Source of the DNA: Candidatus Altiarchaeota archaeon
GTDB taxonomy: Archaea; Altiarchaeota; Altiarchaeia; IMC4; SCGC-AAA252-I15
Direction of reading: 5' to 3'
Length of the DNA stretch: 64,000 nt
Assembly: GCA_043800705.1 (NCBI GenBank)
Contig: JAZDMS010000010.1
Location: forward strand, 2,570 to 66,569
A program made the position numbers and the translations under genes. The notes under the pieces were generated by a model that was given only the letters and a program-made list of their open reading frames with translations, was not told where the DNA came from and ran no database searches. Of this stretch, positions 20,342 through 64,000 are shown one piece after another (the stretch's first letter is position 1; each line of letters begins with the position of its first letter).

Positions 20342-20366
20342 TGCGGTTTTACTTGTATTGTGGCTG

Positions 20367-44410: not shown

Positions 44411-44411
44411 A

Positions 44412-45491: not shown

Positions 45492-45495
45492 GACG

Positions 45496-45909: not shown

Positions 45910-47058
45910 CTAACAATGCTTTGCGTCGGCATCTGCCAAGTACCCCCTCGACGCCATATACCACAGGACGATGATCAAGGGTAAGGCATACTTCTCCCAT
46001 ATGATGAACGAGAAAGCCACGACCAGACAGTTGAAACAGACCATGAGCGATGGAAGGCCGAGCCGCTGAAACCTTAGGACGGCCAAGGCAGCCAACATGT
46101 AATATGCCGCGATGCGCAGAGGCTCTCCAGCGAAGCCAGCCAAGAACGTATCGAATATCCCCATCGTCTTGATGGGATAAACCCCCGGGTTCCCGTAAGG
46201 GGGGAATGACACGAACAACGCAAAGAGCACAACCATAACCGGCACCACAGACTTGCGAGGGCGTCTCAACCACCCGAAGCCGAACAACAATGACTCTACC
46301 AAGACATAATACAACCCGACCATCGAAAGAAGGAAAAGGCTGTATTCCGGATGCAACCCCAACATGGACGGCTTCGGAGAAAGGCCCGGAGGCCCGAATC
46401 CGCCGAAGAGAAGATACCACCCTAAAAGGGACATCGAAGCCATCACATGGGGTGCGGCAGAAGCCAACCGCCTCCTGGAACCTGAAAACAACTCCCATGC
46501 CGCGATGGCAGCGGGGAAGCAGACCATGAACTGCCTTGACGAGACCGCCAGGACGAAGAATAACCCGCTGACCCATCCCTTACCCCGCTCGTAAGCCAGG
46601 AACCCGCACAGCACAAAGAACGACGCCACCATGTCCGTGTATGCGTAGGCGGAAGCCAGCCAGAAATACGGGAACAAGAACAGGCCCACCAAAGGCCGGA
46701 ACCTGCATCCCCTGGCCACGATACAGGCAACCGCGAAGGAGACGAGGAAATTGGTCGCCCTGGCGCCGGAGACACCGAACCCGAAGGTCCGCTCAAGAAG
46801 GGAAAACAGATAAAACACCAGCGGCGTAGGATAGACCCCAGACACCTTCCCGGAATATCCGCGAAGCGCCTCGATATCCGGCATGACCCCCCCTGAAGAG
46901 AAAGCCAAAACGGACGGCCAGAAGAACCGCTCATCGTTTCGCGCATCGAACATTAGCGCCGGCGCGAGGAGGAACGCAATAAGATAAACGGCCATGACGG
47001 CGAACAGGCATCCGTTCTTACAGGAAACCCCCCCCAATACCCGCATAATCCCCTCCAT
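45910..47058 (-). CDS. Polytopic membrane protein, possibly a GT-C glycosyltransferase
   Basis: About 11 TM helices. TATA-like ATATAAATAA about 35 nt upstream. Confidence 0.45.
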   Translation of the reverse strand: MEGIMRVLGGVSCKNGCLFAVMAVYLIAFLLAPALMFDARNDERFFWPSVLAFSSGGVMPDIEALRGYSGKVSGVYPTPLVFYLFSLLERTFGFGVSGARATNFLVSFAVACIVARGCRFRPLVGLFLFPYFWLASAYAYTDMVASFFVLCGFLAYERGKGWVSGLFFVLAVSSRQFMVCFPAAIAAWELFSGSRRRLASAAPHVMASMSLLGWYLLFGGFGPPGLSPKPSMLGLHPEYSLFLLSMVGLYYVLVESLLFGFGWLRRPRKSVVPVMVVLFALFVSFPPYGNPGVYPIKTMGIFDTFLAGFAGEPLRIAAYYMLAALAVLRFQRLGLPSLMVCFNCLVVAFSFIIWEKYALPLIIVLWYMASRGYLADADAKHC

Positions 47059-47717: not shown

Positions 47718-49130
47718 ATGGTATCGAGGCAGGCTAGGCGGCGGGGAAACGGAGAGAATCCTCCAAGCCCCGAGGTAAGAGACCTGCCGACGATGCGTTT
47801 CAAAGGCGAGGATTCAAAAAGCAGCCGCGGCTCAGGCAAGCAGGATATGTTACCTGGGATGACGCCCGCCGAAATATTCGCCGTAGGCACGTCTGTTCTG
47901 GGAGCGAAACGCAGGTTATATGGATCAATCCGCCAGGTCGACGGTCGATTGAGGGGCCTCAGCTCCGCGAATGCGGAGGAGGCCCATGCGGCTCGCCAAT
48001 TTCTAGCGGAAACGATGAGCCGGATCACTGGGAGGTCTGTCGAAGCCGATGCATTCCAAAGCGCCGTTTGGCATGATGGTACGGTTTCTTTCAAAGGAGC
48101 AGGGGCATCCAGAGGATTCGCTCGCATGTCAAAAAATGGGGCGTCAGAAGAATACGACGCGGTTTCAGAAAAGCTGGGTTTTCAGGGCACAGGAGGCGTC
48201 TGTTTCAGGGGGGCGGGCAGGAGCGTCGGCGAGGAGGGGGGTGTCACTTTCGTCCGCTCCATCCGTCGAAAAGATGTGATCTCACATGAGGCTGAGCACA
48301 GAGCGGACTTACTGGTCAGGGAGAGGTATCTGGCCAATCGTGCAATCACCGAATTAAAATCGTTTTCCAGAAACGTTCAGGCAGGGACTTGGAGCTGGGA
48401 GCAGGTTAAAAGGAGTTTTTTCGATTATTATATGAAGAAGAATTGGGGCACCCATCGGTTGTCGGCGGAAGAGCTGAGGGATGCAAGGAAGCAGATAGTG
48501 CGGGCGGTCGATAACGCGGAGAAGCTGGTCGAAAAGGTGGCCGATGAGCATCTGAAAAAAGGTTACTCGCCGGAAGACTCCCGCAAGCGCGGATACCAGC
48601 GGCTGAGGAACATACTCGAAGGCTCCCTGATGCTCGGTCAATTCAACGAAGTCGCGGAAGACGTCCTCTCGGGGAGGATAGGCAGCAGGGAGGCCGTCAA
48701 CTCGAACCTGCGAAAATCTCAGCGGATGCTTTCGGAGACGAGGCCGGCTCCGTGGATGCCAAGCCGGGAGACTGGAACCAAGGCCGTCCCCCCTTCAGTC
48801 AACCTGGGGCGGCGTGTCGGCCTCCTGGAGCGGGTTGTCGATGCCCCTTTCCCTGCTGGTGGGGGGAGGATTGCTGGCAGGGTTCGCCTCATTGGTCCTG
48901 CCGAGGATGTGGTGGACGACCTGCTTCAAGAGCGGTTTCGGCTGTCATCGGACCGTTTCCGGCGGGTCGTCGAATCTCAAAGCGCAGAGCGTAGCATGGG
49001 GGCTGTCAAAGAAGATCGTGTGAGGCCCGCGAAGGAGGATCTGGTAGCGGACGGTCGGTCGGAGGATGACGAACGGGAGGCATCAGATCCGGAAGCTAAA
49101 CCGAAGCGTCACAAGGGTTCTGATCAATGA
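47718..49130 (+). CDS. Hypothetical hydrophilic 470-aa protein with no recognisable domains
   Basis: Long ORF with host-like GC, next to the tRNA-Val repeat cluster. Confidence 0.45.
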   Translation: MVSRQARRRGNGENPPSPEVRDLPTMRFKGEDSKSSRGSGKQDMLPGMTPAEIFAVGTSVLGAKRRLYGSIRQVDGRLRGLSSANAEEAHAARQFLAETMSRITGRSVEADAFQSAVWHDGTVSFKGAGASRGFARMSKNGASEEYDAVSEKLGFQGTGGVCFRGAGRSVGEEGGVTFVRSIRRKDVISHEAEHRADLLVRERYLANRAITELKSFSRNVQAGTWSWEQVKRSFFDYYMKKNWGTHRLSAEELRDARKQIVRAVDNAEKLVEKVADEHLKKGYSPEDSRKRGYQRLRNILEGSLMLGQFNEVAEDVLSGRIGSREAVNSNLRKSQRMLSETRPAPWMPSRETGTKAVPPSVNLGRRVGLLERVVDAPFPAGGGRIAGRVRLIGPAEDVVDDLLQERFRLSSDRFRRVVESQSAERSMGAVKEDRVRPAKEDLVADGRSEDDEREASDPEAKPKRHKGSDQ

Positions 49131-51205: not shown

Positions 51206-51526
51206 ATGGGCCGCTCGAGGGATAAGGGGGAGCAGAGGGATATTGCGCTCGAACGCGTCATGTTGCTTCTTGCCCAGGCCGAGTCTTTGGCGTCTGGGGG
51301 CGATCCGGGTTCAGCGTCTTCGAGGGTGAGGCTGGCGAACAGGATATGTCTCCGTTTCAATCTGCGCCTTCCGCCTGTTTTGAGGCTGCGGTACTGCCGC
51401 GGGTGCCTGTCGTATTTCACGTTATCGAATTCCCGCCGCAGGCTGGATCCGAGGAATCGGAGGCTTGTGGTCAGATGCCTCGCCTGTGGTAGATGCGCAT
51501 ACCGCCCGTATTTCAAGAAGGCTTAG
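51206..51526 (+). CDS. rnp4: RNase P protein component 4 (Rpp21/Rpr2)
   Basis: Zn ribbon CRGC...CLAC and about 105 aa. Confidence 0.65.
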   Translation: MGRSRDKGEQRDIALERVMLLLAQAESLASGGDPGSASSRVRLANRICLRFNLRLPPVLRLRYCRGCLSYFTLSNSRRRLDPRNRRLVVRCLACGRCAYRPYFKKA

Positions 51527-54500
51527 TCTTCTTCTTCACGAAACTTGTGATGTTGAGCATCAGCTTCTCGGCTGGTGACGGGGTCTTTGGCTGATTCGGC
51601 TCTGCGGCCTGCGGGGGTTTTGTTGTCTGTGCGGGAGGCTCCTGAGGCGGCGTTTTCACTGGCTCTTGCGGTTTCTTTTCATCCTTAGGTATGAGGGTTA
51701 TCCTGTGGCGTATGCCCTTCTTGCCTGAGCCGGCCGACGGCTGCGGTATTTGAGGCTTCGGCTGCTGGGGTATTGTCTGCGGGGCTTTTGGCGGTATTGT
51801 CTGGGGTTTGGGTTGTTGGGGCGGCGTCTGTTGCATCGGCTGTGTTGTCTGCTGTTTGGGTTGTTGGGGTATTGTCTGCGGGGCTTTTGGCGGTATTGTC
51901 TGGGGTTTGGGTTGTTGGGGCGGCGTCTGTTGCATCGGCTGTGTTGTCTGCGGCTTAGGCTGCATCGGTCTCATGGGGCCCGACTGCGTTGTGGCCGGCC
52001 TGGCCACCGGTTGTGTAAGTGGTCTCTGCATCTGCGGCATCGGGAATTTACCTGGAGGCTGCGGCTTGTATCCAGGCTGCGGCATCGGCGGCCTCTGAGG
52101 CTGGCCTGGCATCCTCGGCGGCAGCTGCCCCGGCGGAATCGGCCTGTACTGTCCCTGCGGCATCTGCTTGTATTGCATTGATACTGTCGACGGCTGTTTC
52201 TTGAGTATGATCGCTGCTGCGAGGATGAGGAGCGCGATGGTGACTACTACCGTAGAATTCATCCATCCCGAGGATGAGGTCGTCGGGGTCTGGGCTTTGT
52301 TCGAGTTGTCGATGATCTTCCTCGCCTTGGCATATCCGGCATAGTCTCCGCTTTCGTTGAACTTCCTTGACGCGTTCTCCGCGTATTCGGCGGCCTTCTT
52401 GAAATACGCCCCCCTCCAGTACAATTCCGCGTCGTTGTAGAGCATATTGGCCTCATACATATTGTTGGCTTTCTGGTAGAGCTTCAGCGATTTTTCGAAT
52501 CCCTCCGCGCTCGTGTTCTCGAACCATTTCATGGCCTCCTTCGCGTTCTCTGTCGCGTTTTCGAAGCTGCTCCTGTTGAGGGCTGCGGCCGCGGCGGCAT
52601 ATGATTCATCGCCTTTTATGGTGTCTACGGTCCTGTCAATCTTCGCCATATCCTCGGTCCTTCCCGCAAGTTCGAACGATTTTTTCGCGAATCCGAGGAG
52701 CATCTTGGCGGTATCGAGCCTGCCTTCCTTCAGCGCGCTCATCCCGTCCTCGTAGTACGTCTGCGCATTGTCCTGGTTTTTGGTGATTACTGTGAGATTC
52801 TGGCATTTAATGATGCCTTCGGTGTCGTTCAGGCTCCTGAAGAACGTCTTTGCGGCTTCGATGTATACCGACGCGTTGGAGTGCAGTCCGCTGTCGAAGT
52901 AGTATTTTCCTTCGAGGTAGTATTTTTCGGCCTCGATCCTGCGGAAGAGTATGTCGCTCCTGTCCATCCCCCCCGTGTCGTTTACCTGCCTGTAAGTTTC
53001 GGCCGCCCTCTGCAGCTGCTGCCCTGCGTCTTCGAAGTCGCCTTGCTCGTAGAGTCTCTGCGCGTCCTGGAGGATCCTGTCCGAGTCGATGCTCTCCAGG
53101 AGGTCGTCGCATTTGTCTATGCCCCTGATGTACTTGACCTTCGCGTATATCTCGCGGGCCTGGTTGATGAGGGGTATGGCTTCCGCGAAGTTGCCGACTC
53201 CCTTTTGTTCGAGGGCTTTGAGGTAGAGTGCGTCGCCTACCCCTATGCTCCTGCCCCTTCTGTCCCCGAATAGGTAGACTTTTCCGTTATCTGAGCCGAT
53301 GGCTATCTCCGGGGACCCGTCGCCTGTGAGGTCCGCGACCGCCGGCGATGACCTGACCGCGGACCCGGTATCGTGGCTGAACCTCCGGACGCCGGGGTAG
53401 TCGACGATGTAGAAGCTGCCTTCGTTGCTGCCGAATATGACCTCGATCGTGCCGTCGCCGTCGAGGTCGGCTAGCGCAGGGGAGGATTCGATCGGCTTGC
53501 TGAGCGTATACGTCCTGTTGTCCGTCCCGTCGGAGTTGACGAAATGGAGGTTTTTATCGCCGGCTCCGACTGCCAGCCCGTATCCTCCTTCGGGGAACAC
53601 GTCCCCGACCGCCGTGGATGATCTGATCGGACTGTCGATCGTGTGATTCCACAGGAGTCCGAGGCCGCTCAGGCTGATCGTGTCGGTGCCCCACACATCG
53701 TCTACCCGGACCCTCCTCGTCTCGGCAGTGCCCATCCACTGTATCTCCAGCCTGTATATCACTCCGTCCTCGGAGCCGACGATTATCCTCCCGGATTCGT
53801 CTATGGTCGGGGTCGCGCTAATGTCCCCCTTCGTAAGGTACTGCCAGACCTTGTAGGGGGGGTATTTCAGGACATAGATGATGTTGTCCGCTGAACCGAT
53901 GATGATCTCGTCTTTCCCGTCGATGTCGATGTCGTATATGGCTGGCGAGGAGTCGATCTTGTCCAGCGTCTTGTACGACCAGTCCTCGACTCCCTTGGAG
54001 TTGAGGGCGTATATCCTTCCATCCTCGGATCCGAACACTATCTTGTTGTCGGACTGCGGGTCGGTCTCGATGAGTGCGGGCGAAGACCTGACAGGCCCCC
54101 CCGTGGAGAAGTTCCATATGTGCCTTCCGCGGCTGTCCAAGAGGTAGAGCCTGCCGTCGTCGGAGCCGATGAGTATTTCGGTCTTTTGGTCTTTGAAGAC
54201 GTCAGCCGCGGTCGGCGACGACCTGACCGGCCCGCCGGTCTTGAACCTCCATTCAACCTCGCCCTGATAATCCAGGGCATAGACGTATCCGTCGGCGGAT
54301 CCGAACACGATCTCCTTGATGCCGTCCATGTCTATGTCTGATATCACCGGCGAGGACTCGACCTGGCCCCCCGTCTGGTAGTCCCAGAGGGCTCCGAAGT
54401 CGCTCATGTTGCACCAGGTTTCCGCGTCGCTCTCCCCGGTCCGCAGGAAATTCCCCCTGAACGTGGGCCAGTCTGCGGCCGCGGCGTTCTGTGCCAGGAT

Positions 54501-54533
54501 TAGTAGGATCGCGAGGTATGGGGCGCTTCTCAT
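51513..54533 (-). CDS. Large surface protein (signal peptide, PQQ-like beta-propeller repeats, a helical/TPR-like region, one TM helix and a Pro/Gln-rich repetitive tail)
   Basis: N-terminal signal MRSAPYLAILLILAQNAAAA. Repeats of the BamB/PQQ type (DGxxYALD...W). TM VVVTIALLILAAAIIL. The tail consists of QPKPQT-like repeats. Confidence 0.7.
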   Translation of the reverse strand: MRSAPYLAILLILAQNAAAADWPTFRGNFLRTGESDAETWCNMSDFGALWDYQTGGQVESSPVISDIDMDGIKEIVFGSADGYVYALDYQGEVEWRFKTGGPVRSSPTAADVFKDQKTEILIGSDDGRLYLLDSRGRHIWNFSTGGPVRSSPALIETDPQSDNKIVFGSEDGRIYALNSKGVEDWSYKTLDKIDSSPAIYDIDIDGKDEIIIGSADNIIYVLKYPPYKVWQYLTKGDISATPTIDESGRIIVGSEDGVIYRLEIQWMGTAETRRVRVDDVWGTDTISLSGLGLLWNHTIDSPIRSSTAVGDVFPEGGYGLAVGAGDKNLHFVNSDGTDNRTYTLSKPIESSPALADLDGDGTIEVIFGSNEGSFYIVDYPGVRRFSHDTGSAVRSSPAVADLTGDGSPEIAIGSDNGKVYLFGDRRGRSIGVGDALYLKALEQKGVGNFAEAIPLINQAREIYAKVKYIRGIDKCDDLLESIDSDRILQDAQRLYEQGDFEDAGQQLQRAAETYRQVNDTGGMDRSDILFRRIEAEKYYLEGKYYFDSGLHSNASVYIEAAKTFFRSLNDTEGIIKCQNLTVITKNQDNAQTYYEDGMSALKEGRLDTAKMLLGFAKKSFELAGRTEDMAKIDRTVDTIKGDESYAAAAAALNRSSFENATENAKEAMKWFENTSAEGFEKSLKLYQKANNMYEANMLYNDAELYWRGAYFKKAAEYAENASRKFNESGDYAGYAKARKIIDNSNKAQTPTTSSSGWMNSTVVVTIALLILAAAIILKKQPSTVSMQYKQMPQGQYRPIPPGQLPPRMPGQPQRPPMPQPGYKPQPPGKFPMPQMQRPLTQPVARPATTQSGPMRPMQPKPQTTQPMQQTPPQQPKPQTIPPKAPQTIPQQPKQQTTQPMQQTPPQQPKPQTIPPKAPQTIPQQPKPQIPQPSAGSGKKGIRHRITLIPKDEKKPQEPVKTPPQEPPAQTTKPPQAAEPNQPKTPSPAEKLMLNITSFVKKKTKPS
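51767..51964 (-). repeat. Near-perfect 99-bp (33-aa) in-frame tandem duplication inside the PQ-rich tail
   Basis: ggggtattgtctgcggggcttttggcggtattgtctggggtttgggttgttggggcggcgtctgttgcatcggctgtgttgtctgc occurs twice consecutively. It encodes QTTQPMQQTPPQQPKPQTIPPKAPQTIPQQPKx twice. Confidence 0.7.
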
Positions 54534-54569
54534 AGGGTTAATTAATGATGCGACTAAATCATATTAATA

Positions 54570-55283
54570 GTGAAGATGAGAAGCGTCAGCGGTCGGGGGC
54601 AGAGCGGCATCGAGCTCATCGTCGGCGTGGCACTCATCCTGGTGGTCTTTTTAATCGTGGTCCTGATGGTCATGGACAAGACCGCAGAGACCTCGAGGGT
54701 AAAAAGTCTCATCGACGCGCAGAGGGTCGGTGTCAGCATGAGGGACAACATCAACATGATAAACGATGAGGGTCCGGGATACTATGCCTACGTCTCGATT
54801 CCCGAGCGCATCCATGGCGGATACGAGTACGACATCATTGCGAGGAACAATGTCCTGGAGATCGTCTGGGAGGACAACGCGTGGACGACGAAGGTCATTC
54901 CCACGAACGTGACCATATACTGCCTCGACAAGGGTTACACCCTTAAAAACAGGATATTCTACGGCTCTGAAGGCATCGAGGTGACCTGCAACCGCCCGAA
55001 TCTGAGAGTCGTTCCTCACACCGTCGTCAGAACCCCTGGCAAGACCACAATCGACGTAGTGAACGACGCGCACGTCGACGCAGGTATTTTCAGGACGAGA
55101 TTCCAGACCAACTCCACGCCCTCGACATCATTCGCTGTCACGGCGGGGCTTGCTGCGGGCGATACTACAACCCTGGAATTCAACCTGCAAGCCAACAACT
55201 TCACATATTTCGCCGTCGACTATCTCGGCGACGTAAACGAGAGCATCGAATCCGACAACGGGATGAACGAGACCCTATCATGA
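54570..55283 (+). CDS. Type IV pilin-like protein with a class III signal peptide
   Basis: RG|QSGIELIVGVALILVVFLIVVL has Q at +1, E at +5 and a hydrophobic helix. There are many N-x-S/T sequons. TATA-like ttaattaat about 28 nt upstream. Confidence 0.6.
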   Translation: MKMRSVSGRGQSGIELIVGVALILVVFLIVVLMVMDKTAETSRVKSLIDAQRVGVSMRDNINMINDEGPGYYAYVSIPERIHGGYEYDIIARNNVLEIVWEDNAWTTKVIPTNVTIYCLDKGYTLKNRIFYGSEGIEVTCNRPNLRVVPHTVVRTPGKTTIDVVNDAHVDAGIFRTRFQTNSTPSTSFAVTAGLAAGDTTTLEFNLQANNFTYFAVDYLGDVNESIESDNGMNETLS

Positions 55284-55822
55284 AGCCAAATTCGGATCAA
55301 GGGCAGATGTTCAGCGGCGAGTTCATCCTCGGATTCATCCTGTTTGCCGTTGCGTTCGCCATGATGATCTCCCTCTGGGACACGACGACACGGGACGTCC
55401 TGCGGGCCGAAAGCATCAGGGAGATGAACGACGCAGCAGTCAACGCAGCGGAGACGCTCGTCAGGACGCCGGGCGTGCCTTCGGATTGGAACCGGTCGAA
55501 TGTCGCCTCCCTCGGCCTGGCCAACCAAAGCAGGATACTACACCCACTGAAGGTGAAGGAATTCGTCCATTACATGAGCACGAACGAGACCGGCCTCTGC
55601 GGCTCCGAGAAAAACTATCAATGCAACCTGCATATGCTCGGCCTCGGCGGATACGATTTCATGATGAACATATCGTACGTCAACGGGACGACCGTGAACG
55701 TGAACGGGACGCCCGCCTACGTCGGCCGCCCGCCCGTCAACGAGACCGAGCGGATCACGGTGCTTCGGACGACGATATTAAACGATGAAATAACAAGACT
55801 ATACCTGACGGTGTGGAAATGA
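55280..55822 (+). CDS. Type IV pilin-like protein with a class III signal peptide
   Basis: DQG|QMFSGEFILGFILFAVAFAMMISL. ATGA-coupled to the upstream gene. Confidence 0.55.
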   Translation: MKPNSDQGQMFSGEFILGFILFAVAFAMMISLWDTTTRDVLRAESIREMNDAAVNAAETLVRTPGVPSDWNRSNVASLGLANQSRILHPLKVKEFVHYMSTNETGLCGSEKNYQCNLHMLGLGGYDFMMNISYVNGTTVNVNGTPAYVGRPPVNETERITVLRTTILNDEITRLYLTVWK

Positions 55823-58800
55823 AAAGGGGGTATGCCATTATCCTGGACGCCGTGGTGGCGCTGACCTTCGTCCTGGTTATCATGGCGTCATTTCTCGGGA
55901 TCGTAAAGACGTCGTCAATCGTCTCCGAATCCAGCATGGTGCGGCTCCACTACGTATCCGAGGACGCGCTGGACGTGCTGAACAAGAAGGGCGTCCTAGA
56001 CTATGTCGGCGAGGAGTGGGCTGCGGCGGACGGCAACCGATCGAGCGGCCATTTCGCGAACGCCAACCTAACGTTATCGTCCTACCTGGAGCGCATCCTC
56101 CCCCCCAACGTCGGCTACCGGATCACGATAGACGACGATGTCGTCGCGGAGAACATCAGCCGGATCCCCCTGGATTCGTCGACTTCCCTGACCCACTCCA
56201 CCCGCCTGCTCGTCGGATACGGCAAAGGCCTTCCAACCCGGGGGAACGTCGCCAGGGCGGCATTGAACAACATCAAGGAGAAGGAAACCTCATCGTATAC
56301 GTACTTCGGGGGCTTCGTGGGGGAGGGCAATATAACAGTCTACGTCCGCGACATACCAGCAGACGCTGACATACTCAGCTGCTGCCTTGAGGTGAACACG
56401 CCATCGGACTACGACCTGTACATCAACGACCAGCTCGCAGGATCTTTCTCCCCCGTTTCATCGAGCGACATGTCTGCTACATTGAGGGACCGCTCCCAGA
56501 CCGGATGTCCCGTGCCTTCCGGCACCGGCAGCGGCTGCGTTGCGGGATGCTCACCCCTCATCTCCCCCGGCGAGGACAACGAGTTCGAGATCAGGTTTAC
56601 TGGCTCCGACATCAGCGAACAGTACGTCGGAGGGGGATACATCCACGTCCTGTACAACACAAACACCATGGACACCGACGAGGCTGTGAAGATGTCGAGG
56701 TACTATTTCCCGGGAATCGACGGCATCATCAACCTCTACGACTCCTTCTACGTGCCAGGGAGGCTTCAGTCCATGGATGCTAGGATACGGTACAAGAGCA
56801 ACTACTCCACATTCCTGGACATCGGCGACATCACCGTATTCAACTCAAGCGGAGGGGACCCCGACTGGCAGGAGGTCAACATATCCGACAGCAACTTCTT
56901 GACCATGGGGTTCATCTACTCGTCCGGCGGATTCCCCCAGGACCTGACATCGCTGAGCATGAACACCGTGCCGCTGAGGTTCGGCTCCAAGAACATCAGC
57001 CAGGTCATAGCGTCGGGGAACGCCGACGTCGTACTGATAACCGACGTCTCCGGCAGCATGGCCTGGCGCATCGGATACACGGACAGCACTTCGGGCACGA
57101 CCCGCGACTGCAACAGCCCGAACCTTTACGACGCCGACACCAGACGGATCAGCCTCGCGAAATGCCTCGACAAGCAGTTCATCAACACCGTCATGAACAG
57201 GAGCGGCAACAGGATGGCGCTCATATCCTTCGACGACCTCGCGGAAGCCGACGGCAGAAACCCGTACCACCTGACCGACGCGCAGAACAACGCGAGCCTC
57301 ATCGCCCAGATAAACAGCTACTCCAACAGCCCCTCCGGGGGGACATGCATATGCTGCGCCATAAATCTGGCATACGAAATCCTGCAGGCCGAACGCGACC
57401 CCGGAAAGGACGCATACATCATCGTCATGACCGACGGCATCGCGGGGAAGAACTGCGGCGGGTGCAGCTACGGCAGGGGCCCGATATTCACATCGAGCTT
57501 CGAGGACGCATCGGAAGCGTCAAGCTGGATGGTTGACCCTGTCAGGACGACGGCGTCCACGGGCTATTATTTCGGCATGTCCGACAACGGCTCAATCGGC
57601 GCGCATACGGGGGACAGCTACCTCGGAATCTGGGGCAACTTCACGGGATATCTCGTCCTAAACAGGACCAAGATCGACATATCCAACTATACCGACGTAA
57701 ATGTGAGCGTCTGGTACAGCTACGAGAGCACGGAATCGACCGACCGGTTGGCGTTCCTGTACTGGAACGGGACGCGCTGGAGGACGGTCTTCAACATAAC
57801 GAACCCAAACATCGGCAACGGGAACCAGGCCGCATGGCGCAACGCCTGGGCCCTCATCCCCTCGACCGTCGAGAACCTGACCCTCCAGTTCATGGGCAGG
57901 ACCGACAACACCTCCGAGAGGGAGCATGTGATGATAGACGACCTAGAGGTTCAGGGGCACGGCCTGTACACATGCGACAGCTGCGGCGGCAATTGCTCGA
58001 GCAAGACGGGGACGGACAGCTGCGGCGGAAACCCGTCGGACTGCTACAACAACGCATGCTATCCCGCCATATACGACACCATATGCTCCGCCAAGCGGGC
58101 GCACAACGACCTCGGCGCGGAGATCCGGTCAATCGGCTTCGGCCCAGCGACGGTGGGATGCCTGACCGCGGAAACCACGCTAATGGGCGTCGCAACATGC
58201 GGCGAGGGCGATTACTGCCCCGGCGGGAACGCCACAGCCGCGGCGTCATGCTATCTGAACTTCTCCACCCAGATATTTGACTCCTCAACGAGGAGCCAGT
58301 CCATCGTGTTCGGCGGCGCCTTCGAGGAGAGCGTCCTGGACCCGATCTCCTACATAGAGTTCACATTCGAGCCGGAGAACAGGTCCTCATACGGGGAAGT
58401 GTCGCTCAAGCGCTCCACATGCAGGTTCGCAGATACCGTCTCCTGCACCGGTGACATCGCAGTCCCGTCAGGGGCCGTCGTCTCGGACGCCAAGGTCACC
58501 TCATACTCCGGCCCCCAATGGACGGATTACGTGACCCTCGCATCGAGCGGCTCCCCCGACACGGTATACAACCTCGGAGCATGGGGCTCGGGATATCAGG
58601 TTCTCGGCGACCCTTTTATCGTCAACATCCCGGTCGAATACGTGGAATCCGACGTCAACAACGAGATATACGTGCGGACAGGCAACAGCTCAAGCTCCCC
58701 TACGGGATGCTCTCCCGACGACAAGGCGATATACACCCTCCGGATGCACACGATGGCGGGATACGGGGACGTCTTCCAGGACAACATCGGCTGCAACTGG

Positions 58801-59079
58801 ACGATACAGTTCGAGGACGACACATCGTTCACCTCCCCGCTGCCGTCGTCCTACAACGGCTCGGAATCATGCTACTTCACGAACGCCAGCATAGACTACG
58901 CCGACGACGACGCGATGAACGACGCCATCTACCGACTTCTCGTCCAGCTCGACCTGGACCGCAACGGGAAGGTCGACCTCCTCTTCGACCCGGCGATGAT
59001 AGAATTCGAACTCAGCCAGGCCAGCGGGATACAGTCCCTTTGGGGGCCGGCGAAATTCAAGCTCATAGTGTGGATGTGA
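55813..59079 (+). CDS. Large secreted adhesin-like protein: a pilin-like N-terminal anchor, a von Willebrand factor A domain with MIDAS motif, and lectin/MAM-like jellyroll domain(s)
   Basis: VLITDVSGSM...IIVMTDG (DxSxS...T...D). The N-terminus is KRGYAIILDAVVALTFVLVIM. There is a WxxxDDLEV-type jellyroll region. Its start overlaps the upstream pilin gene. Confidence 0.7.
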   Translation: MEMKRGYAIILDAVVALTFVLVIMASFLGIVKTSSIVSESSMVRLHYVSEDALDVLNKKGVLDYVGEEWAAADGNRSSGHFANANLTLSSYLERILPPNVGYRITIDDDVVAENISRIPLDSSTSLTHSTRLLVGYGKGLPTRGNVARAALNNIKEKETSSYTYFGGFVGEGNITVYVRDIPADADILSCCLEVNTPSDYDLYINDQLAGSFSPVSSSDMSATLRDRSQTGCPVPSGTGSGCVAGCSPLISPGEDNEFEIRFTGSDISEQYVGGGYIHVLYNTNTMDTDEAVKMSRYYFPGIDGIINLYDSFYVPGRLQSMDARIRYKSNYSTFLDIGDITVFNSSGGDPDWQEVNISDSNFLTMGFIYSSGGFPQDLTSLSMNTVPLRFGSKNISQVIASGNADVVLITDVSGSMAWRIGYTDSTSGTTRDCNSPNLYDADTRRISLAKCLDKQFINTVMNRSGNRMALISFDDLAEADGRNPYHLTDAQNNASLIAQINSYSNSPSGGTCICCAINLAYEILQAERDPGKDAYIIVMTDGIAGKNCGGCSYGRGPIFTSSFEDASEASSWMVDPVRTTASTGYYFGMSDNGSIGAHTGDSYLGIWGNFTGYLVLNRTKIDISNYTDVNVSVWYSYESTESTDRLAFLYWNGTRWRTVFNITNPNIGNGNQAAWRNAWALIPSTVENLTLQFMGRTDNTSEREHVMIDDLEVQGHGLYTCDSCGGNCSSKTGTDSCGGNPSDCYNNACYPAIYDTICSAKRAHNDLGAEIRSIGFGPATVGCLTAETTLMGVATCGEGDYCPGGNATAAASCYLNFSTQIFDSSTRSQSIVFGGAFEESVLDPISYIEFTFEPENRSSYGEVSLKRSTCRFADTVSCTGDIAVPSGAVVSDAKVTSYSGPQWTDYVTLASSGSPDTVYNLGAWGSGYQVLGDPFIVNIPVEYVESDVNNEIYVRTGNSSSSPTGCSPDDKAIYTLRMHTMAGYGDVFQDNIGCNWTIQFEDDTSFTSPLPSSYNGSESCYFTNASIDYADDDAMNDAIYRLLVQLDLDRNGKVDLLFDPAMIEFELSQASGIQSLWGPAKFKLIVWM

Positions 59080-59084
59080 TATAT

Positions 59085-61733
59085 ATGAAACGGAAAGGGA
59101 TGTTTTTCACGATATCGATAGTCCTGCTGGTAGTCCCGCTCATACTCTTCGTCGCATACTACTACACGTCCACGCAGACCAAGGTCCAGGACACGATATC
59201 AAAGGTCCGCTGCGACGAACTCCACTACTTCGTCGAAGACGTCAGGGAGGACATGGAACGGGCGCTCGTCATATTCGGCCGCAGGGCAGCCATCTATGCC
59301 CTAAGCGATGTCGTGGAAAAGGGCAGCTCCCTTGGCGGGTACGTCTTCAACTGCACCTCCACCTGCCGACTCGACTGCTCGAAGTTCGCCTTCGCAGTCA
59401 ACGGATCGGAGGCGGCGATCGCGGAGCTCTCCGTCTGCGGCACCCTCTACGGCAGGAACGTCTCGTACATGGCCAACCACACCCTCTCCCAGTGGATAAC
59501 CCGCATCGAAACCCACGGCTCGGACATGCACTTCAACGTCAGCATAGACCTGAAGAGCGTCGAGCTGGCGATGAGCGACCCGTGGACCTTCCACTCGTTC
59601 ACCAACAGCACGTTCAAGGTATACGACGAGGCCAAAGTCTGCTACTTTGTCGGCGACAGCGTGACGACGTCGTCGGCTACGTCCATCCTCGGCCTCGAAG
59701 ACCCCCTCTTCCCGCTTTACACAGGCGGCCAGATGGACAAATACATGCTGAATTGCACCGTCCCGATCATCCTCCAGCTCAAGGCCGGATGCAGCGCTGA
59801 CCCCGATTCGCCGGGCAACGGGACCGCCTCCGGCTACGTCGTCTTCGACTCCGATATCGGGGACGCTGACACATACTGCCAGAACACCCCCGGCATCAAT
59901 GGCCAGATCCTCGTCCTGGACGGCGGCTTCGGCAGCTGCAACGCATACGAGGGCGACTGCTTCAACGCAAGCAGCCCCAACCACTTCGCAGGCGTCTTGG
60001 ATTACGGGCCCAACAATCCTCAGAGCTTCATCAACAAATGCGATGTCACCATACCATGGCTCATGGACACCGGAGACATAGACGACGAGGCTCCAAGGAG
60101 CCCGCCAAGGAGGGTGCCGTCATGCGCCGGCGGCGACATAGCGGACGGCGAATGCATACAGCTGAGGAACAGCGGCCTTTGCGGCATACACGACATCCTG
60201 CTGGGGTGCCCGTCCGACAGGGTCAACACCACCTGCTACCAGGCAAGCAACGCAAGCCTCATGGGCGGCTTCGACGGGCCGAGCTTCTTCGACAGGCTCG
60301 ACGGGAGCCTTAGACTTGGAGAAAAATACCTCAACCAGAGCATGCTACATTTCAACACGACCCTGATAGGCGTCGAGACGCTCGTCAACCCCTACGTCCT
60401 CGACGACCACGACGTCAAGGTGAAATCAAACGCATCCTGGGTCGACTACCTTTACTGGAACGGAACGTACGGCTGCGCTGCCATCGGCACCTGCTCACTC
60501 GACGAATACAACTTCCGCTTCGACGACCCGCACGCGAGCATATACTCCGTAGACACCTCATGCGTGAACGTCACCGGCTGCGGAATATCGGAATCCTGCG
60601 TGGACGACGTCGACGAGGACCTCGACGGCCTGCCGGACTGGCTCGACCCATCATGCGCCGGCAGCTTCGCGGAATGCGGGACCATAATATCGTGCGACCC
60701 GACCGACAGCGACTACTGCGGGACATGCGACTACCAAAGCCCCAAGCCGATAGCGGAAAACACCCAGGCAACGTGCCTCAACTACGGATACAACGACACC
60801 GAATGGCACTTCTACTCGGTGACGCCGACCCAGGACGGCCTCTTAACCGTGAGATTCAACGGCACAGCCACCCCGACCGGGAACAAGAAAACAGACATGG
60901 TCGTATACAACTACACCGAAAGGGGCTGTTCGATCCCGGTCGAGCACGATTTCGACATGGAACGCAACTACGAGAATGCATTCTGCGTCGGCGCAGGCCA
61001 GACGTACGTCGTCGCCCTCGACTCGGACAGCGTATACGGCGAAAACGGCGCATACAACCTCTCCGTAACGCTGACGCCTGGCAGCCCCTCATGCCCCGCC
61101 GCTCCCTCGACCATGGAGTCGACATCCTCATCGTCGATCGCCGGCTCGTCGTCCTACTCCTCCAGCAGCATATTCAGCACCTCAAGCTACAGCTCAAGCT
61201 CCGCCAGCAGCTCAAGCAGCGTGCCATGCGGCTTCTTCGACGACATGGAAGACTCAGACAACGGCTGGACCCACGACGGAGCCAACGAGGACTGGGAGCG
61301 CGGAACCCCAACATGGCTGTCGGCAGACGGCAAATACGCATACTCCGGGACAGACTGCTGGGCCACAAACCTCAACGGCAACTACGCCAACAACATGAAC
61401 GGGACCCTCCTAAGCCCCCCCATATACATCCCCGCATCATCCTCCCCCCTCCTCCTGTTCCACGTCAAATACAGCATAGAATACTACAACTCCGGAACCG
61501 GGAAGGGGGACCGCGGATTCGTGGAAGCATCGTCTGACGGGATCAACTGGGACCGGCTGGGCGTCTACTCCAACACCGTATCCGACCAGTCACAGAACGG
61601 CTGGATACAGAAAACATACTCCCTCGACCCCTACCGGGGGGGCAATGTCCGGTTACGATACCGGCTCAGGTCCGACGGGAATATACGCCGAGCCGGCCTC
61701 TACATAGATGACGTAAACGTCACCTGCTCATAG
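59085..61733 (+). CDS. Large Cys-rich secreted protein with a Ser-rich linker and a C-terminal MAM/choice-of-anchor-J-like jellyroll domain
   Basis: The start is taken at MKRKGMFFTISIVLL; the upstream part of the listed ORF is a shadow frame of the preceding gene. About 50 Cys. Poly-Ser linker, then ...DCWATN...LLSPPIYI...RLRY...YIDDVNVTC. Confidence 0.6.
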   Translation: MKRKGMFFTISIVLLVVPLILFVAYYYTSTQTKVQDTISKVRCDELHYFVEDVREDMERALVIFGRRAAIYALSDVVEKGSSLGGYVFNCTSTCRLDCSKFAFAVNGSEAAIAELSVCGTLYGRNVSYMANHTLSQWITRIETHGSDMHFNVSIDLKSVELAMSDPWTFHSFTNSTFKVYDEAKVCYFVGDSVTTSSATSILGLEDPLFPLYTGGQMDKYMLNCTVPIILQLKAGCSADPDSPGNGTASGYVVFDSDIGDADTYCQNTPGINGQILVLDGGFGSCNAYEGDCFNASSPNHFAGVLDYGPNNPQSFINKCDVTIPWLMDTGDIDDEAPRSPPRRVPSCAGGDIADGECIQLRNSGLCGIHDILLGCPSDRVNTTCYQASNASLMGGFDGPSFFDRLDGSLRLGEKYLNQSMLHFNTTLIGVETLVNPYVLDDHDVKVKSNASWVDYLYWNGTYGCAAIGTCSLDEYNFRFDDPHASIYSVDTSCVNVTGCGISESCVDDVDEDLDGLPDWLDPSCAGSFAECGTIISCDPTDSDYCGTCDYQSPKPIAENTQATCLNYGYNDTEWHFYSVTPTQDGLLTVRFNGTATPTGNKKTDMVVYNYTERGCSIPVEHDFDMERNYENAFCVGAGQTYVVALDSDSVYGENGAYNLSVTLTPGSPSCPAAPSTMESTSSSSIAGSSSYSSSSIFSTSSYSSSSASSSSSVPCGFFDDMEDSDNGWTHDGANEDWERGTPTWLSADGKYAYSGTDCWATNLNGNYANNMNGTLLSPPIYIPASSSPLLLFHVKYSIEYYNSGTGKGDRGFVEASSDGINWDRLGVYSNTVSDQSQNGWIQKTYSLDPYRGGNVRLRYRLRSDGNIRRAGLYIDDVNVTCS

Positions 61734-61777
61734 TACTCGGATTTTAACCCGTCCGGGTAATCATTAAACTCCTTAGG

Positions 61778-63319
61778 ATGACAGAAATCAAGGCCAGACT
61801 TCTGGGGGGTGTACAGGAAAAAAAGAAGACCGGCGCCGAGAGGCTAAAGTCTATCCTGGAGGAGATAAAAACCAGAGGCACCGTCACGGAAAGCGAACTT
61901 GCCAAAGCCACAGAAATTGACAAGGCCGCCCTGAAAAAATACATCAAATACCTCAGCGACAACGGCCTGATAACCATACAACGGCGGTTCTTCAGGGCGG
62001 CTGAAATATCCGCCGCCGGGGGCAGAACCATGAAAACCCCCCCAAAACAGGAGGAACGCCCCCCGGAACCCTCCACGGAGGAAACAGCCGCAGAAGAACC
62101 CGACAGGGAGGAAAAACCTCCGCCTGCCCCGCCACAAAAAACGGGGGAAAATCAGGCACCTGCATCTGAGCCATTGCCTGAAAAGGAGCCGCCCGCCGAA
62201 CAGCCCCCCAAGGAGACGGAATCCCAGAAAACCGACCTGGAACCGAAAAGCCCCCCGATACAGGGAGGCGAGAAGGTCATACCCGCCACCGAAGCCGAAC
62301 TGAAGGAAGTGTGCGAGAGCCTCGTAACCGACTTCTTAGGCGTCATACGCCTCTTCGGAGAGATCCAGGGCAAATCGTACACCGCAGGCCTGCTCATAGA
62401 CAAGGGAGACATCATAGCATCCTCATTCGAGCACATGGACACGGTCGAGATCCTCTACGGAGACGAAGCCCTCAGACAGATGCAGGAGAAATTCTGCGGC
62501 ACCAGGGGAGACCTCGAGATCTACGAGCTGTCCGAGGAAGACCTCAACGAGTCCCTCATCAAGAACATCAACTACCTCCTCACCACCCCGATAAAGCTCT
62601 CGACCCTAAAGATAAAGATAAAGACGACAACCCCCCCTCCCGAGGAGAGACGATACATGTTCTCGAACCTCGCGTGCATGTTCAACCGCCCGGACCCCAA
62701 AGCCAAGGAAGAAAGGATGACGGTGCTGAAGGAGATGAAAAAGCGGAGGGTCGAGAAACTCAGCGGAGGACTCAACCTCGTCGACTTCGCAAGAAACCTC
62801 GTATTCGACCCTGCGAAGGCGAAACGGTTCGAGGAGCTGAGAAAGGCCATGCAGAAGACCGCGCCGGAACAAGGCCGCGAAGACCCCCGCAAGGCCGCAA
62901 GGTTCGAGGAATTGAAAAACCAGCGGATGCTGCTTAAGGGCATCATCCCCCAGCAGGGCGGTCCCATGTCCAAGGAAGAACGGATCGAAAAATTCAAACA
63001 GGAGCACAAACCAATACAGGCCCTGCCGGAGAAGCTGGACAAGATCCCTGTAAAAGCCGTCAAGGAGGGGAAAAAGATAGAGACGAACATCGACAGATTC
63101 TACGATTACGTCAAAAGCAATGGCAAGCTGAAGCTCAACGACGCACTGTCGCTAAAATTGAAGGTCAGCAAGACCCAGCTCGAAGCCTGGGCGATGATAC
63201 TGGAGGAGCACAGCCTCCTGGAACTCCGATACCCGACGATCGGGGAGCCTGAAGTCGCATACAACGCCCCGGAAAAACCGGTAAAAACGGATGATGCAGA
63301 TGGCAGAAAAAAAAGATAA
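61778..63319 (+). CDS. wHTH-domain protein with a Pro/Glu-rich linker and a C-terminal helical domain
   Basis: TVTESELAKATEIDKAALKKYIKYLSDNGLI wHTH at the N-terminus; a second HTH-like segment near the C-terminus. Confidence 0.5.
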   Translation: MTEIKARLLGGVQEKKKTGAERLKSILEEIKTRGTVTESELAKATEIDKAALKKYIKYLSDNGLITIQRRFFRAAEISAAGGRTMKTPPKQEERPPEPSTEETAAEEPDREEKPPPAPPQKTGENQAPASEPLPEKEPPAEQPPKETESQKTDLEPKSPPIQGGEKVIPATEAELKEVCESLVTDFLGVIRLFGEIQGKSYTAGLLIDKGDIIASSFEHMDTVEILYGDEALRQMQEKFCGTRGDLEIYELSEEDLNESLIKNINYLLTTPIKLSTLKIKIKTTTPPPEERRYMFSNLACMFNRPDPKAKEERMTVLKEMKKRRVEKLSGGLNLVDFARNLVFDPAKAKRFEELRKAMQKTAPEQGREDPRKAARFEELKNQRMLLKGIIPQQGGPMSKEERIEKFKQEHKPIQALPEKLDKIPVKAVKEGKKIETNIDRFYDYVKSNGKLKLNDALSLKLKVSKTQLEAWAMILEEHSLLELRYPTIGEPEVAYNAPEKPVKTDDADGRKKR

Positions 63320-64000
63320 GGAAGCGAAGGAGGCCGAAGTGCTGGACAGCTATGAGCTGGAGGCCGATGGGATAAAGACCCCCGTCCAGATAGTAATGAA
63401 GGACTTCGTCCCCCATTACAAGCTCATACTCCCCGAACTCGACGTCGCTACGATCGCGCTCATGGACGACATAAAGGACCGGCTCATATCCGGGGTTGAG
63501 ATGAGCACCAGCGAAATACTCGACCCCAAACAGCTCGGCCAGCTGACGAAGGAATTCTCTAACAGCGCCGACACCATCATAAACGAGGAACTGGGCAGCC
63601 TCAACGAAGACGTCAAAAAACACCTGGTCCACCGCATGCTCCACGAGCTCCTAGGACTCGACGAGATAGAATACTTCCTCTCCGACCCCAACCTCGAAGA
63701 GATCATCGTAAACTCCGCGTCGGAGCCGATAAGGGTCTACCACAAGAAGTGGGGCTGGCTCCTGACCAACATCACCCCTGTCAGCGAGATGCGGATACAG
63801 AACTACGCCAACACGATAGCGCGGCGCGTAGGGCGGGAAATAACGACATTGAACCCCCTCCTGGACGCCCACCTTGTCAGCAAGGACAGGGCGAACGCGA
63901 TACTCACGCCGATCGCCACCAAGGGAAACACCATCACCATCAGGAAATTCGCCCGCGACCCCTGGACAGCGACGGACTTCATTAACTCAGGCACCGCGTC
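63300..64000 (+). CDS. Type IV pilus/archaellum-family secretion ATPase (FlaI/ArlI/PilB-like), N-terminal part, 3'-truncated by the window end
   Basis: The ORF is open to the window end. EPIRVYHKKWGWLLTNI...DRANAILTPIATKGNTITIRKFARDPW aligns with the FlaI N-terminal domain (GHVYIVHKVFGPMRTSI...GSNLTVRKFSRVP). Confidence 0.8.
   Translation, partial: MAEKKDKEAKEAEVLDSYELEADGIKTPVQIVMKDFVPHYKLILPELDVATIALMDDIKDRLISGVEMSTSEILDPKQLGQLTKEFSNSADTIINEELGSLNEDVKKHLVHRMLHELLGLDEIEYFLSDPNLEEIIVNSASEPIRVYHKKWGWLLTNITPVSEMRIQNYANTIARRVGREITTLNPLLDAHLVSKDRANAILTPIATKGNTITIRKFARDPWTATDFINSGTA

Follow-up and report, generated by a model that had tools for sequence, protein, structure and literature searches.

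A probable type IV pilus-like adhesin locus with giant modular pilin-like proteins in Altiarchaeota

Our analyses of a 64,000-nucleotide stretch of contig JAZDMS010000010.1 from a Candidatus Altiarchaeota archaeon (the whole stretch being referred to as the window) point to a locus at its right-hand end which probably encodes the pilin/adhesin half of a type IV filament system resembling type IV pili (T4P) in Alti-2-type Altiarchaeota, along with the beginning of its motor half; DPANN archaea possess a version of this system as well. The central claim of an earlier reading of this DNA, made from its letters alone (hereafter the sequence-only reading), namely that it holds a type-IV-pilus-like adhesin locus, is supported by synteny, by the relatives of the encoded ATPase, and by the von Willebrand factor A (VWA) and MAM folds of the two largest products. 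The cassette is a real, widely conserved, and uncharacterised variant of archaeal pilus loci with adhesin-like proteins that had already been predicted. What is most notable about it is that the giant proteins appear to be pilin-like themselves, that one of the families always lacks an acidic residue near its N-terminus, and that binding modules are swapped between lineages of Altiarchaeota and DPANN archaea.

Archaeal type IV filaments are known mainly from a few model species, and their minor pilins and adhesins are almost all predictions. In the locus described here, four coupled pilin-like genes are conserved phylum-wide, and two of them code for modular proteins of 880-1090 amino acids (aa) that carry a metal-dependent VWA site and lectin-like jelly rolls varying between lineages.

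The g1-g4 cassette and its N-termini

The genes of the locus, designated g0 to g6, are arranged as follows:

51513..54533, minus strand: g0, 1006 aa, divergent from g1
54534..54569: divergent intergenic region between g0 and g1, 36 bp, A/T-rich
54570..55283, plus strand: g1, pilin-like protein of 237 aa
55280..55822, plus strand: g2, pilin-like protein of 180 aa
55819..59079, plus strand: g3, modular pilin-like VWA protein of 1086 aa
59085..61733, plus strand: g4, Cys-rich modular pilin-like protein of 882 aa
61778..63319, plus strand: g5, cytoplasmic protein of 513 aa with winged helix-turn-helix (wHTH) and DUF2226 regions
63291..64000, plus strand: g6, N-terminal 236 aa of a T2SSE/VirB11-family ATPase (FlaI/PilB/TadA superfamily), cut by the window end

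All four coupled genes of the sequence-only reading, g1 to g4, are present where they had been placed. The ATGA overlap at the g1/g2 junction indicates probable translational coupling, and the same overlap is found at the g2/g3 junction given a g3 start at ATG 55819, which yields 1086 aa and agrees with the NCBI annotation; the 1088 aa previously ascribed to the third protein hold for the alternative start GTG 55813, but not for this ATG. Gaps of 5 nt and 44 nt separate g3 from g4 and g4 from g5, respectively, while g5 and g6 overlap by 29 nt, the latter starting at 63291 and remaining open at the window end. Two A/T-rich TATA-like elements, TTAATTAA and ATATTAATA, were recognised by reading the sequence of the divergent intergenic region, and are presumed to be the promoters of g0 and of the g1-g4 operon. 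The g1, g3, and g4 products are 100% identical to NCBI proteins from a 211-kb contig of an Altiarchaeota metagenome-assembled genome (MAG; tags V1875_02380, which is g1, to V1875_02395), labelled there as 'vWA domain-containing' or 'hypothetical'.

This arrangement is not due to chance, because it is conserved across many genomes. A search with g5 retrieved 18 loci, almost all from Altiarchaeota MAGs, and the window proteins were compared by BLAST with such related loci (numbered below with the prefix L). The order g0 (minus strand), g1, g2, g3, g4, g5, ATPase is kept in L001, L002, L004, L005, L007, L008, L010, L015, and L016, with identities in syntenic loci of 30-58% for g0-g5 and 58-78% for the ATPase. 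The cassette is rearranged in L018, a Nanoarchaeota single-cell genome, which codes for two extra small pilins (KRG↓QISIE and RA↓QSAME, the arrow marking the predicted end of the leader here and below) together with g2, g3, and a short g4; the matches of these pilins to Class_IIIsignal (PF04021) and DUF7266 are weak, a Nanoarchaeota homologue reaching E 0.012 with the former (16 bits vs a cut-off of 23.7). In L019/L020, which represent another Altiarchaeota lineage (1.56-Mb contig), the region 2950-18847 holds g1, an extra 196-aa DUF7287-like pilin, and g2, followed by the g3-g4 pair twice.

The products of g1 to g4 share class-III-like N-termini. In g1 the leader ends in RG and the predicted mature protein starts with QSGIELIVG, with Q at +1 and E at +5; its orthologues follow the pattern (K/R)G↓Q(S/T)xxELI, or QxSxE in some cases. 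The g2 N-terminus, G↓QMFSGEF, also has Q at +1 (orthologue pattern (K/R)G↓Q(M/V)FSGEF). Of the Q+1 and E+5 that had been read in both proteins as part of class III signals, both residues are present in g1 and Q+1 is present in g2, but the acidic residue of g2 lies at +6, a position kept in its orthologues. The g3 leader, MKRG, is followed by YAIILDAV with D at +6 (orthologue pattern (K/R)G↓Y(A/G)xxxDA), and the g4 leader, MKRKG, by MFFTISIV without any acidic residue (orthologue pattern (K/R)G↓(F/Y/L/M)(F/L)(F/Y)T). Among orthologues, leaders of 3 to ~20 residues always end in a basic residue plus Gly, followed by ~20-25 hydrophobic residues.

The motif [KR]x0-1G plus a hydrophobic stretch was counted across homologues of the two giants. 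It occurs in 60 of the 72 members of the g3 family, with an acidic residue at +6 in 58 of those 60, and in 63 of the 71 members of the g4 family, with D or E within +1..+8 in none of the 63; in both families, homologues without the motif are for the most part gene calls that have been truncated. A module common to the g3 and g4 N-termini is modestly supported by a profile-profile alignment of the two families over their first ~55 positions (E 5e-5, probability 67%), in which a LHYxxED motif is shared after the N-terminal helix, the similarity being marginal in a direct pairwise comparison of the g3 and g4 N-termini (E 0.032). Since both carry conserved class-III-like N-termini, the giants are best read as modular pilin-like proteins. 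All four upstream proteins, and not the first two alone as the sequence-only reading had it, would therefore be pilin-like. This putative class III assignment is founded on conserved motifs, not on family membership.

At the C-terminus of g1 (nt 55026-55265) a CARDB (Ig-like) domain was detected with Pfam (7e-5, 23.4 bits vs a cut-off of 22.7), and a comparison of g1 with PDB sequences gave nothing useful; the protein could serve as a minor pilin, or possibly as the major subunit. The match of g2 to Pfam DUF7287 is full-length but weak (E 0.045), its paralogue in L019 matching the same family at 4e-4. DUF7262, DUF7266, and DUF7287, which are archaeal Pfam families of unknown function, were recovered as sub-threshold matches both here and in paralogues of other loci, and a literature search on the DUF72xx families found no papers.

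Putative adhesive modules of the two giant proteins

The following features were delimited in g3:

55819-55902: leader and transmembrane (TM) helix
to about residue 390: helical and beta N-terminal region
57016-57453 and 58036-58293: VWA domain
57043-57057: metal ion-dependent adhesion site (MIDAS) motif DVSGS, to which T509 and D539 are added
57478-57963 (about residues 554-715): beta-strand insert within the VWA domain
58330-59073: conserved C-terminal beta domain

Its description as a VWA/MIDAS protein is upheld by a Pfam VWA_2 match above threshold (6e-8, 33.7 bits vs a cut-off of 27), by near-invariant MIDAS residues, and by fold matches to vWA adhesins. The MIDAS is judged from the sequences to be intact; of its residues, D409 and D539 never vary among 72 homologues, and at least 90% of these keep S411, S413, and T509. 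A further Pfam match, to DUF7262, lies below the gathering threshold (9e-5). In the AlphaFold2 model of g3 (mean pLDDT 87.0) a long N-terminal helix is followed by beta-sheet, and Foldseek matched the model to Streptococcus sanguinis PilB (7ba2/7b7p), to the vWF domain of the Mfa5 tip protein (6tnj), and to SpaC (6m48). Further matches were to the neuropilin MAM domain (5l73) and to CBM4/CBM22, Foldseek leaving unstated which part of g3 was aligned; we provisionally assign these matches to the VWA insert, which is read as a jelly roll.

The features of g4 are:

59085-59168: TM helix
59193-59684: long helix and three-stranded antiparallel sheet
to about 60584: conserved Cys-rich core
60732-61079: collagen-binding/PPC-like sandwich
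61107-61220: Ser-rich linker, disordered
61233-61724: C-terminal MAM domain

The MAM/lectin-like fold suggested for this fourth protein was recovered both as an InhA-like MAM domain above the Pfam threshold (34.1 bits vs a cut-off of 26.9) and in a high-confidence AlphaFold2 model (mean pLDDT 87.5), in which a long N-terminal helix again precedes beta-sheet and whose fold matches include MAM and collagen-binding domains. Structure prediction, named in the sequence-only reading as a check on the two giants, therefore confirmed a VWA fold in one and a MAM fold in the other. Their pilin moiety is proposed from the N-terminal motif combined with the helix-then-sheet order in the models.

Conserved parts of g3 and g4 are retained while ligand-binding modules change between lineages. 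Homologues of g3, which include proteins from Woesearchaeota, Aenigmarchaeota, and Nanoarchaeota, carry CUB, FG-GAP, BNR, GH115_C, and integrin-beta-type modules, and those of g4 carry Big, fn3, Laminin_G_3, and toxin-receptor-binding modules. With a profile of the g4 family, 1434 cluster representatives were retrieved at E<=1e-3, of which 202 remain at E<=1e-30; numerous among them are proteins of 300-420 aa that match just the N-terminal ~230 positions, and the few named representatives are from Micrarchaeota and Aenigmarchaeota. In L010 (1-2673, plus strand) a g2 homologue is fused into a larger protein of at least 883 aa with a g4-like sandwich, and L008 (1077-7229) holds two to three tandem g3-like genes; modular growth and duplication therefore reach beyond g3 and g4. 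Directly after the L018 cassette (166-4422, minus strand) lies a gene for a secreted protein of 1418 aa, in which beta-helix-like repeats, CxDGxDNDxDGxxDC Cys-rich motifs, and a C-terminal TM anchor were recognised by sequence reading, and which is possibly a further adhesin.

Surface exposure of these proteins is suggested by their sequon content. N-x-S/T sequons number 27 in g3 (vs 12.2 +/- 3.2 in residue shuffles), 22 in g4 (vs 9.1 +/- 2.5), 7 in g2 (vs 2.1 +/- 1.4), and 15 in g0 (vs 4.5 +/- 1.9), while in the cytoplasmic proteins of the window they occur at shuffle expectation; the earlier remark that the proteins are packed with sequons is thus borne out for g2, g3, and g4. The fourth protein is indeed 882 aa long and Cys-rich, with 34 Cys (3.9%), and g3 contains 28 (2.6%). 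The exposed parts of g3 and g4 are predicted to be heavily N-glycosylated and disulfide-bonded.

Motor genes and the standing of the pilus reading

Downstream of the cassette, the wHTH gene and the FlaI/PilB-family ATPase gene running off the window end were both found as announced, g5 matching wHTH families and the g6 fragment matching FlaI, BasE, and TadA. The features of g5 are:

61838-61987: wHTH, with HTH_11 and MarR-like Pfam matches
between the wHTH and DUF2226: Pro/Glu/Lys-rich linker
62243-62629: DUF2226 (Pfam, 8e-6)
63059-63256: conserved C-terminal segment of ~65 aa (...LEAWAMILEEH.L.E..YP...)

Its position directly 5' of the ATPase gene is kept in 17 loci. In the Nanoarchaeota locus L018 (9536-10210) the C-terminal segment alone is kept, behind a multi-TM domain that takes the place of the wHTH and DUF2226, and the conserved segment may be the functionally essential part. 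A comparison with PDB sequences gave no relative of g5, which is plausibly a regulator or adaptor of the motor, together with a KaiC-like ATPase described below.

The NCBIfam matches of the g6 fragment (FlaI 1e-17, BasE 1e-15, TadA 2.5e-10) are all far below the cut-offs because the protein is truncated. The fragment is 73-78% identical to full-length orthologues of 520-533 aa in syntenic Altiarchaeota loci, which carry Pfam T2SSE (4.8e-33). Among solved relatives of such an orthologue, afGspE of Archaeoglobus fulgidus is the best (2oap, 2e-66), followed by FlaI (7.5e-54) and CpaF (4.9e-48). By these comparisons the ATPase is classed as one of archaeal pilus type.

A different reading, in which the ATPase would belong to an archaellum operon continuing past the window and the upstream genes would be unrelated surface proteins, is very improbable. 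In NCBIfam the g6 fragment matches FlaI best, an archaellin-family gene is present at 23751-24341, and 'flagellar proteins' have been reported for Alti-2 genomes (PMC4975002). However, with the FlaI equivalog, whose cut-off is 550 bits, the full-length orthologue reaches 266 bits, its best solved relative is afGspE, and the archaellin gene lies 30 kb off on the other strand. In all 14 related loci with enough downstream DNA the ATPase gene is followed by T2SSF_a and T2SSF_b, in that order, these being two split TadB/TadC-like platform genes, with or without a KaiC gene; FlaF, FlaG, FlaH, or a single FlaJ never occur there, and the ArlF, ArlG, ArlH, ArlJ, ArlX set follows the ATPase in none of the relatives examined. 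In L001, L002, L005, L007, and L008, the closest relatives of the window, a gene for the KaiC-like ATPase (240 aa, opposite strand) separates the ATPase gene from that of the first platform protein. The FlaI equivalog score and the genes downstream in relatives largely refute the archaellum reading, which the sequence-only reading had itself named as a possible refutation. The same synteny bears out its expectation of a membrane partner beyond the window, and the platform genes of this genome probably lie just past position 64000.

A link to hami of the Candidatus Altiarchaeum hamiconexum type, according to which the locus would encode or assemble these grappling-hook appendages, was rejected on domain content and on the locus of IMC4_SM1, and we give it next to no likelihood. 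It is true that the source organism belongs to Altiarchaeota, and that the hamus subunit has an N-terminal hydrophobic helix for which a pilus-like assembly was once suggested (PMC4460559). The hamus protein is S-layer-like, however, with S_Layer_N, NosD, and FKBP_C domains, none of which was found by Pfam in g0-g5; in IMC4_SM1, the one other Altiarchaeota genome with a reported hamus homologue, a DUF2226 gene stands without the cassette or the ATPase beside it; and hamus homologues are reported to be missing from most Alti-2 genomes.

Several observations weigh against a T4P-like system. Searches with class III signal hidden Markov models (HMMs), to which the sequence-only reading had pointed as a check, gave no profile match for g1-g4, neither to PF04021 nor to N_methyl (PF07963) or TIGR02537, even at permissive thresholds. 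For the N-terminal ~500 aa of g4 there was no solved-structure match among the matches listed, and pilin-fold homology is therefore argued from secondary-structure order alone. The locus's own platform genes are not within the window, whose end cuts the ATPase gene, and in L019/L020 no platform genes come after the ATPase. No major pilin was identified in the locus. The prepilin peptidase that was sought did not appear either: none of the A24 type (PibD, FlaK, EppA) was identified among the polytopic membrane proteins of the window, most of which were scanned by Pfam and three (8608-9909, 15108-16187, 16929-17666) by N-terminal sequence alone, and inspection of the window and of related loci brought up no EppA candidate, although no targeted search was made for it.

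Some of these observations would also suit signal-anchored type II membrane adhesins. Under this explanation g1-g4, or at least g3 and g4, would keep an uncleaved helix and be merely co-encoded or co-regulated with a pilus motor, as the missing pilin or class III HMM matches, the lack of a prepilin peptidase nearby, and the L019/L020 cassette, standing with an ATPase but without platform genes, could suggest. Archaeal surface proteins are, moreover, often glycosylated and N-terminally anchored. A plain anchor, however, needs neither a leader that invariably ends in Gly nor an acidic residue fixed at +5/+6 in three families and absent from the fourth. The linkage of the cassette to ATPase and platform genes across phyla, and a four-gene set with a K-like member, which fits known tip complexes, also speak for a pilus, and we regard the anchored-adhesin explanation as unlikely.

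The absence of an encoded major pilin from the locus is also what would be expected of a short pseudopilus or a bindosome-like structure, whose VWA and lectin modules would capture substrates or polymers near the cell surface. The g6 fragment scores nearly as high against the bindosome ATPase BasE as against FlaI, and polymers could be ligands of the CBM-like, collagen-binding-like, and MAM modules; in a 2026 preprint it is proposed that binding proteins bearing SPIII (class III signal peptides) functionalise archaeal type four filament (TFF) machines for scavenging (10.64898/2026.04.22.720090). Yet none of g1-g4 is an ABC solute-binding protein, transporter genes do not flank the locus, the pair formed by a VWA-MIDAS protein and a lectin is typical of pilus-tip adhesins, and archaeal major pilins are often encoded elsewhere (PMC4858521). 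A capturing pseudopilus is in our view quite unlikely, and a T4P-like adhesive system remains the preferred reading.

Known filament systems, a possible tip complex and neighbouring genes

Modular type IV pilins have been defined in bacteria as proteins with a class III signal and a pilin moiety fused to a module that is not specific to pilus biology (PMC8179133), and in Streptococcus sanguinis an adhesive tip complex is built from the minor pilins PilA, PilB, which has a vWA module, and PilC, which has a lectin module (PMC8179133, PMC9934059). The likeness to this PilABC complex includes minor pilins encoded in one operon, a vWA-MIDAS module in one of them and a ConA-like lectin in another, one protein without the acidic residue, and an adhesive complex predicted to fit only at the pilus tip, in addition to the matches of the g3 model to both PilB structures. 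PilABC, however, is bacterial and made of N-methylated pilins of IPR012902 type; it comprises three proteins vs four here, PilB being ~50 kDa vs ~115 kDa for g3 and ~97 kDa for g4 (estimated from lengths); the protein without Glu5 is the small PilA; and sequence homology does not extend beyond the VWA domain.

In HIJK complexes, a bulky K subunit without Glu5 caps the filament and has no subunit above it (PMC9934059). The locus resembles these systems (GspH/I/J/K, FimU-PilVWX) in having four pilin-like genes per operon, a proposed role in priming and adhesin display, and a subunit without the acidic residue as filament cap, here the bulky g4 by analogy. The likeness is functional and organisational, since g1-g4 gave no match to GspH, GspI, GspJ, or GspK in Pfam, NCBIfam, or the fold matches listed. 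The initial proposal of minor pilins with a giant adhesin at the tip stands as a probable one, but its analogy with PilY1 does not: the adhesive modules are here fused to pilin-like proteins, whereas PilY1 is a separate non-pilin protein, and the locus proteins showed no Pfam match to the PilY1/Neisseria_PilC family, their sole propeller being g0, of PQQ/FG-GAP type and on the opposite strand. HIJK, PilABC, and TadG would thus be closer analogues than PilY1.

With Tad/Flp systems the locus has in common two platform genes (in relatives), an ATPase related to CpaF, and small pseudopilins alongside a vWA pilin-like protein (TadG); the last, as well as the linkage of KaiC to clade 2 and not to clade 1, was noted in PMC4858521. 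It differs in that no TadE/TadG (PF07811/PF13400) match, secretin, RcpA-type gene, or Flp-type short major pilin was found in the locus, and in that the g6 ATPase is nearer to archaeal GspE and FlaI than to CpaF.

Among archaeal systems, large adhesin-like proteins have been predicted for clade 1 (Epd) pili, where they would sit at the tip, and for other TFF loci (PMC4858521). The preprint cited above reports System 1, which has two platform genes, from DPANN archaea, along with adhesin-like proteins of several systems, and mentions neither Altiarchaeota nor vWA (10.64898/2026.04.22.720090). The Epd/System 1 pili of Methanococcus maripaludis share with the present locus Q+1 pilins, several minor pilins, two platform genes (here in relatives), and a pair of large jelly-roll proteins that resemble adhesins and are predicted to sit at the tip; the QISIE and QSAME pilins of the Nanoarchaeota locus add to the likeness. 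On the other hand, descriptions of Epd include neither VWA nor MAM modules, KaiC linkage is a clade 2 trait, and no EppA-like peptidase is encoded in the locus. Membership of the Epd family is not supported, as PF04021 has no match at E<=10 in g1, g2, their isolated N-termini, or orthologues (Pfam scan). Of the Epd-type, EppA-processed nature attributed to the first two proteins, the resemblance therefore survives, but neither the family match nor a peptidase in the window was found. The clade 2/System 2 loci (the Haloferax volcanii pil loci, A. fulgidus GspE) are similar in their afGspE-like ATPase, KaiC association, and large adhesin-like proteins, and in the DUF7262/DUF7266/DUF7287 matches, which are all below gathering thresholds here; they differ in having a single platform gene (10.64898/2026.04.22.720090) vs two in the relatives of this locus. 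Judged from gene content and sequence, the locus appears to mix features of System 1/Epd and of clade/System 2.

Literature searches on type IV pili of Altiarchaeota and DPANN archaea, on vWA, and on class III signals returned no description of the cassette or of archaeal vWA/MAM modular pilins, and an earlier Altiarchaeales genome comparison listed just 'flagellar proteins' for the Alti-2 core. The view that no comparable archaeal pilus has been characterised thus holds as far as the cassette itself is concerned, but adhesin-like proteins had already been predicted in archaeal loci (PMC4858521, 10.64898/2026.04.22.720090), and bacterial vWA/lectin modular pilins have been characterised (PMC8179133, PMC9934059).

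On these analogies, we propose that g1-g4 would enter the membrane via their short basic (K/R)G leader and a hydrophobic helix of ~20-25 residues (the class III signal), the leader then being removed by a prepilin peptidase encoded elsewhere. The four mature proteins would assemble through their N-terminal helices into a priming/tip complex, in which g4 is proposed as the cap because it alone of the four has no acidic residue near its N-terminus, like K of HIJK; beneath it would follow g3 (D+6), g2 (E+6), and g1 (E+5). A major subunit, for which candidates are g1 itself or a gene elsewhere, e.g. the archaellin-family gene 23751-24341, would be polymerised underneath, driven by the g6 ATPase and the two TadB/TadC-like platform proteins, with the KaiC-like ATPase and g5 regulating or adapting the motor. 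The filament would serve adhesion to surfaces, polymers, or partner cells, g3 binding through its VWA domain with the MIDAS and both g3 and g4 through lectin-like jelly rolls, and module exchange between lineages would retune its specificity.

The divergent gene g0 adjoins g1 in L001, L002, L004, L005, L007, L015, and L019/L020, and in L019/L020 AglB (STT3) adjoins g0 in turn. Its product is a secreted PQQ/FG-GAP beta-propeller (Pfam Beta-prop_ACSF4 4e-48, FG-GAP, and PQQ_2) continued by a TPR-like helical region, a single TM helix, and a tail rich in Pro and Gln, and it is a possible accessory or envelope component, as judged by synteny alone.

Three genes resembling glycosyltransferases of the GT-C class had been described as nearby:

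6825-8546: PMT_2 glycosyltransferase, solid match
21894-23681, minus strand: PMT_2+TPR glycosyltransferase, solid match
45910-47058: ALG10-like, weak match

Two of the three are sound, but the third is weak, and they lie ~7.5-48 kb from the locus and not next to it. Directly upstream of the PMT_2+TPR gene is the archaellin-family gene 23751-24341 (minus strand, 196 aa), with the N-terminus ...NKG↓STGVGTLIIFIAVILVAAVAA, an Arch_flagellin match at 1.4e-28 (Pfam), and 131.7 bits in NCBIfam flagellin vs a cut-off of 210; no archaellum operon is found nearby. Its product could serve the pilus motor as major filament subunit, or belong to a separate archaellum with its genes elsewhere. Tandem genes for single-domain KaiC-like ATPases (31343-32047 and 32050-32742, both on the minus strand; Pfam KaiC 4e-59 and 2e-58) lie ~30 kb from the pilus locus and are distinct from the KaiC-like gene expected after the ATPase.

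The 589-aa product of 38892-40661 (minus strand) combines a pair of GILT/DsbA-like thiol-disulfide oxidoreductase domains with 21 Cys and a single predicted TM segment, and 11453-12166 (minus strand) codes for a DsbD_2/CcdA-like membrane protein; together they suggest extracytoplasmic disulfide formation, as the Cys-rich g3 and g4 would need. Elsewhere in the window, an arsenic-resistance-like cluster (12652-15092, minus strand) codes for a low-molecular-weight phosphatase/ArsC-like protein, an ArsM-like S-adenosylmethionine-dependent methyltransferase, an ArsR-family HTH protein, and an SBF/ACR3-type transporter. The region ~18000-21000 is a low-GC island (GC 0.44-0.49 vs about 0.56-0.60 elsewhere) holding a PIN-domain gene (19625-20008, 1.4e-15) and small family-less open reading frames (ORFs), e.g. 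18726-19220, and may be a mobile or recently acquired segment. At 40844-45882, an Mrp-antiporter-like subunit (Proton_antipo_M, 3.6e-51) and a gene resembling the complex-I 49-kDa/NiFe-hydrogenase large subunit (1.8e-58) suggest a membrane-bound hydrogenase or an Mrp-type energy-converting complex. Finally, a candidate ORF of 470 aa (47718-49130, plus strand) has no Pfam family at E<=0.01 and a third-position GC (GC3) of 0.62, below that of its neighbours.

A more speculative idea, which we hold to be rather doubtful, is that the cassette is the archaeal counterpart, possibly ancestral, of the bacterial four-minor-pilin priming complex, with adhesins fused to pilins, and that its exchangeable modules, those in the VWA insert and at the C-terminus, could be the partner- or host-recognition determinants of Altiarchaeota and episymbiotic DPANN archaea. 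In that case the locus would offer candidate genes for the attachment of these cells to hosts or to one another, and a K-capped tip complex older than the split between bacterial and archaeal type IV filaments would be suggested. Should the pilus model be wrong, the genes would still represent a large, uncharacterised family of glycosylated, disulfide-rich surface proteins tied to a pilus motor. If instead it is true, the principles of the 'modular pilin' and of the 'K-capped tip complex' would extend from bacteria to archaea, earlier readings of such genes as 'flagellar proteins' would be corrected, and the cassette would provide candidate genes for surface and host attachment in Altiarchaeota and DPANN archaea, groups whose attachment genes are largely unknown.

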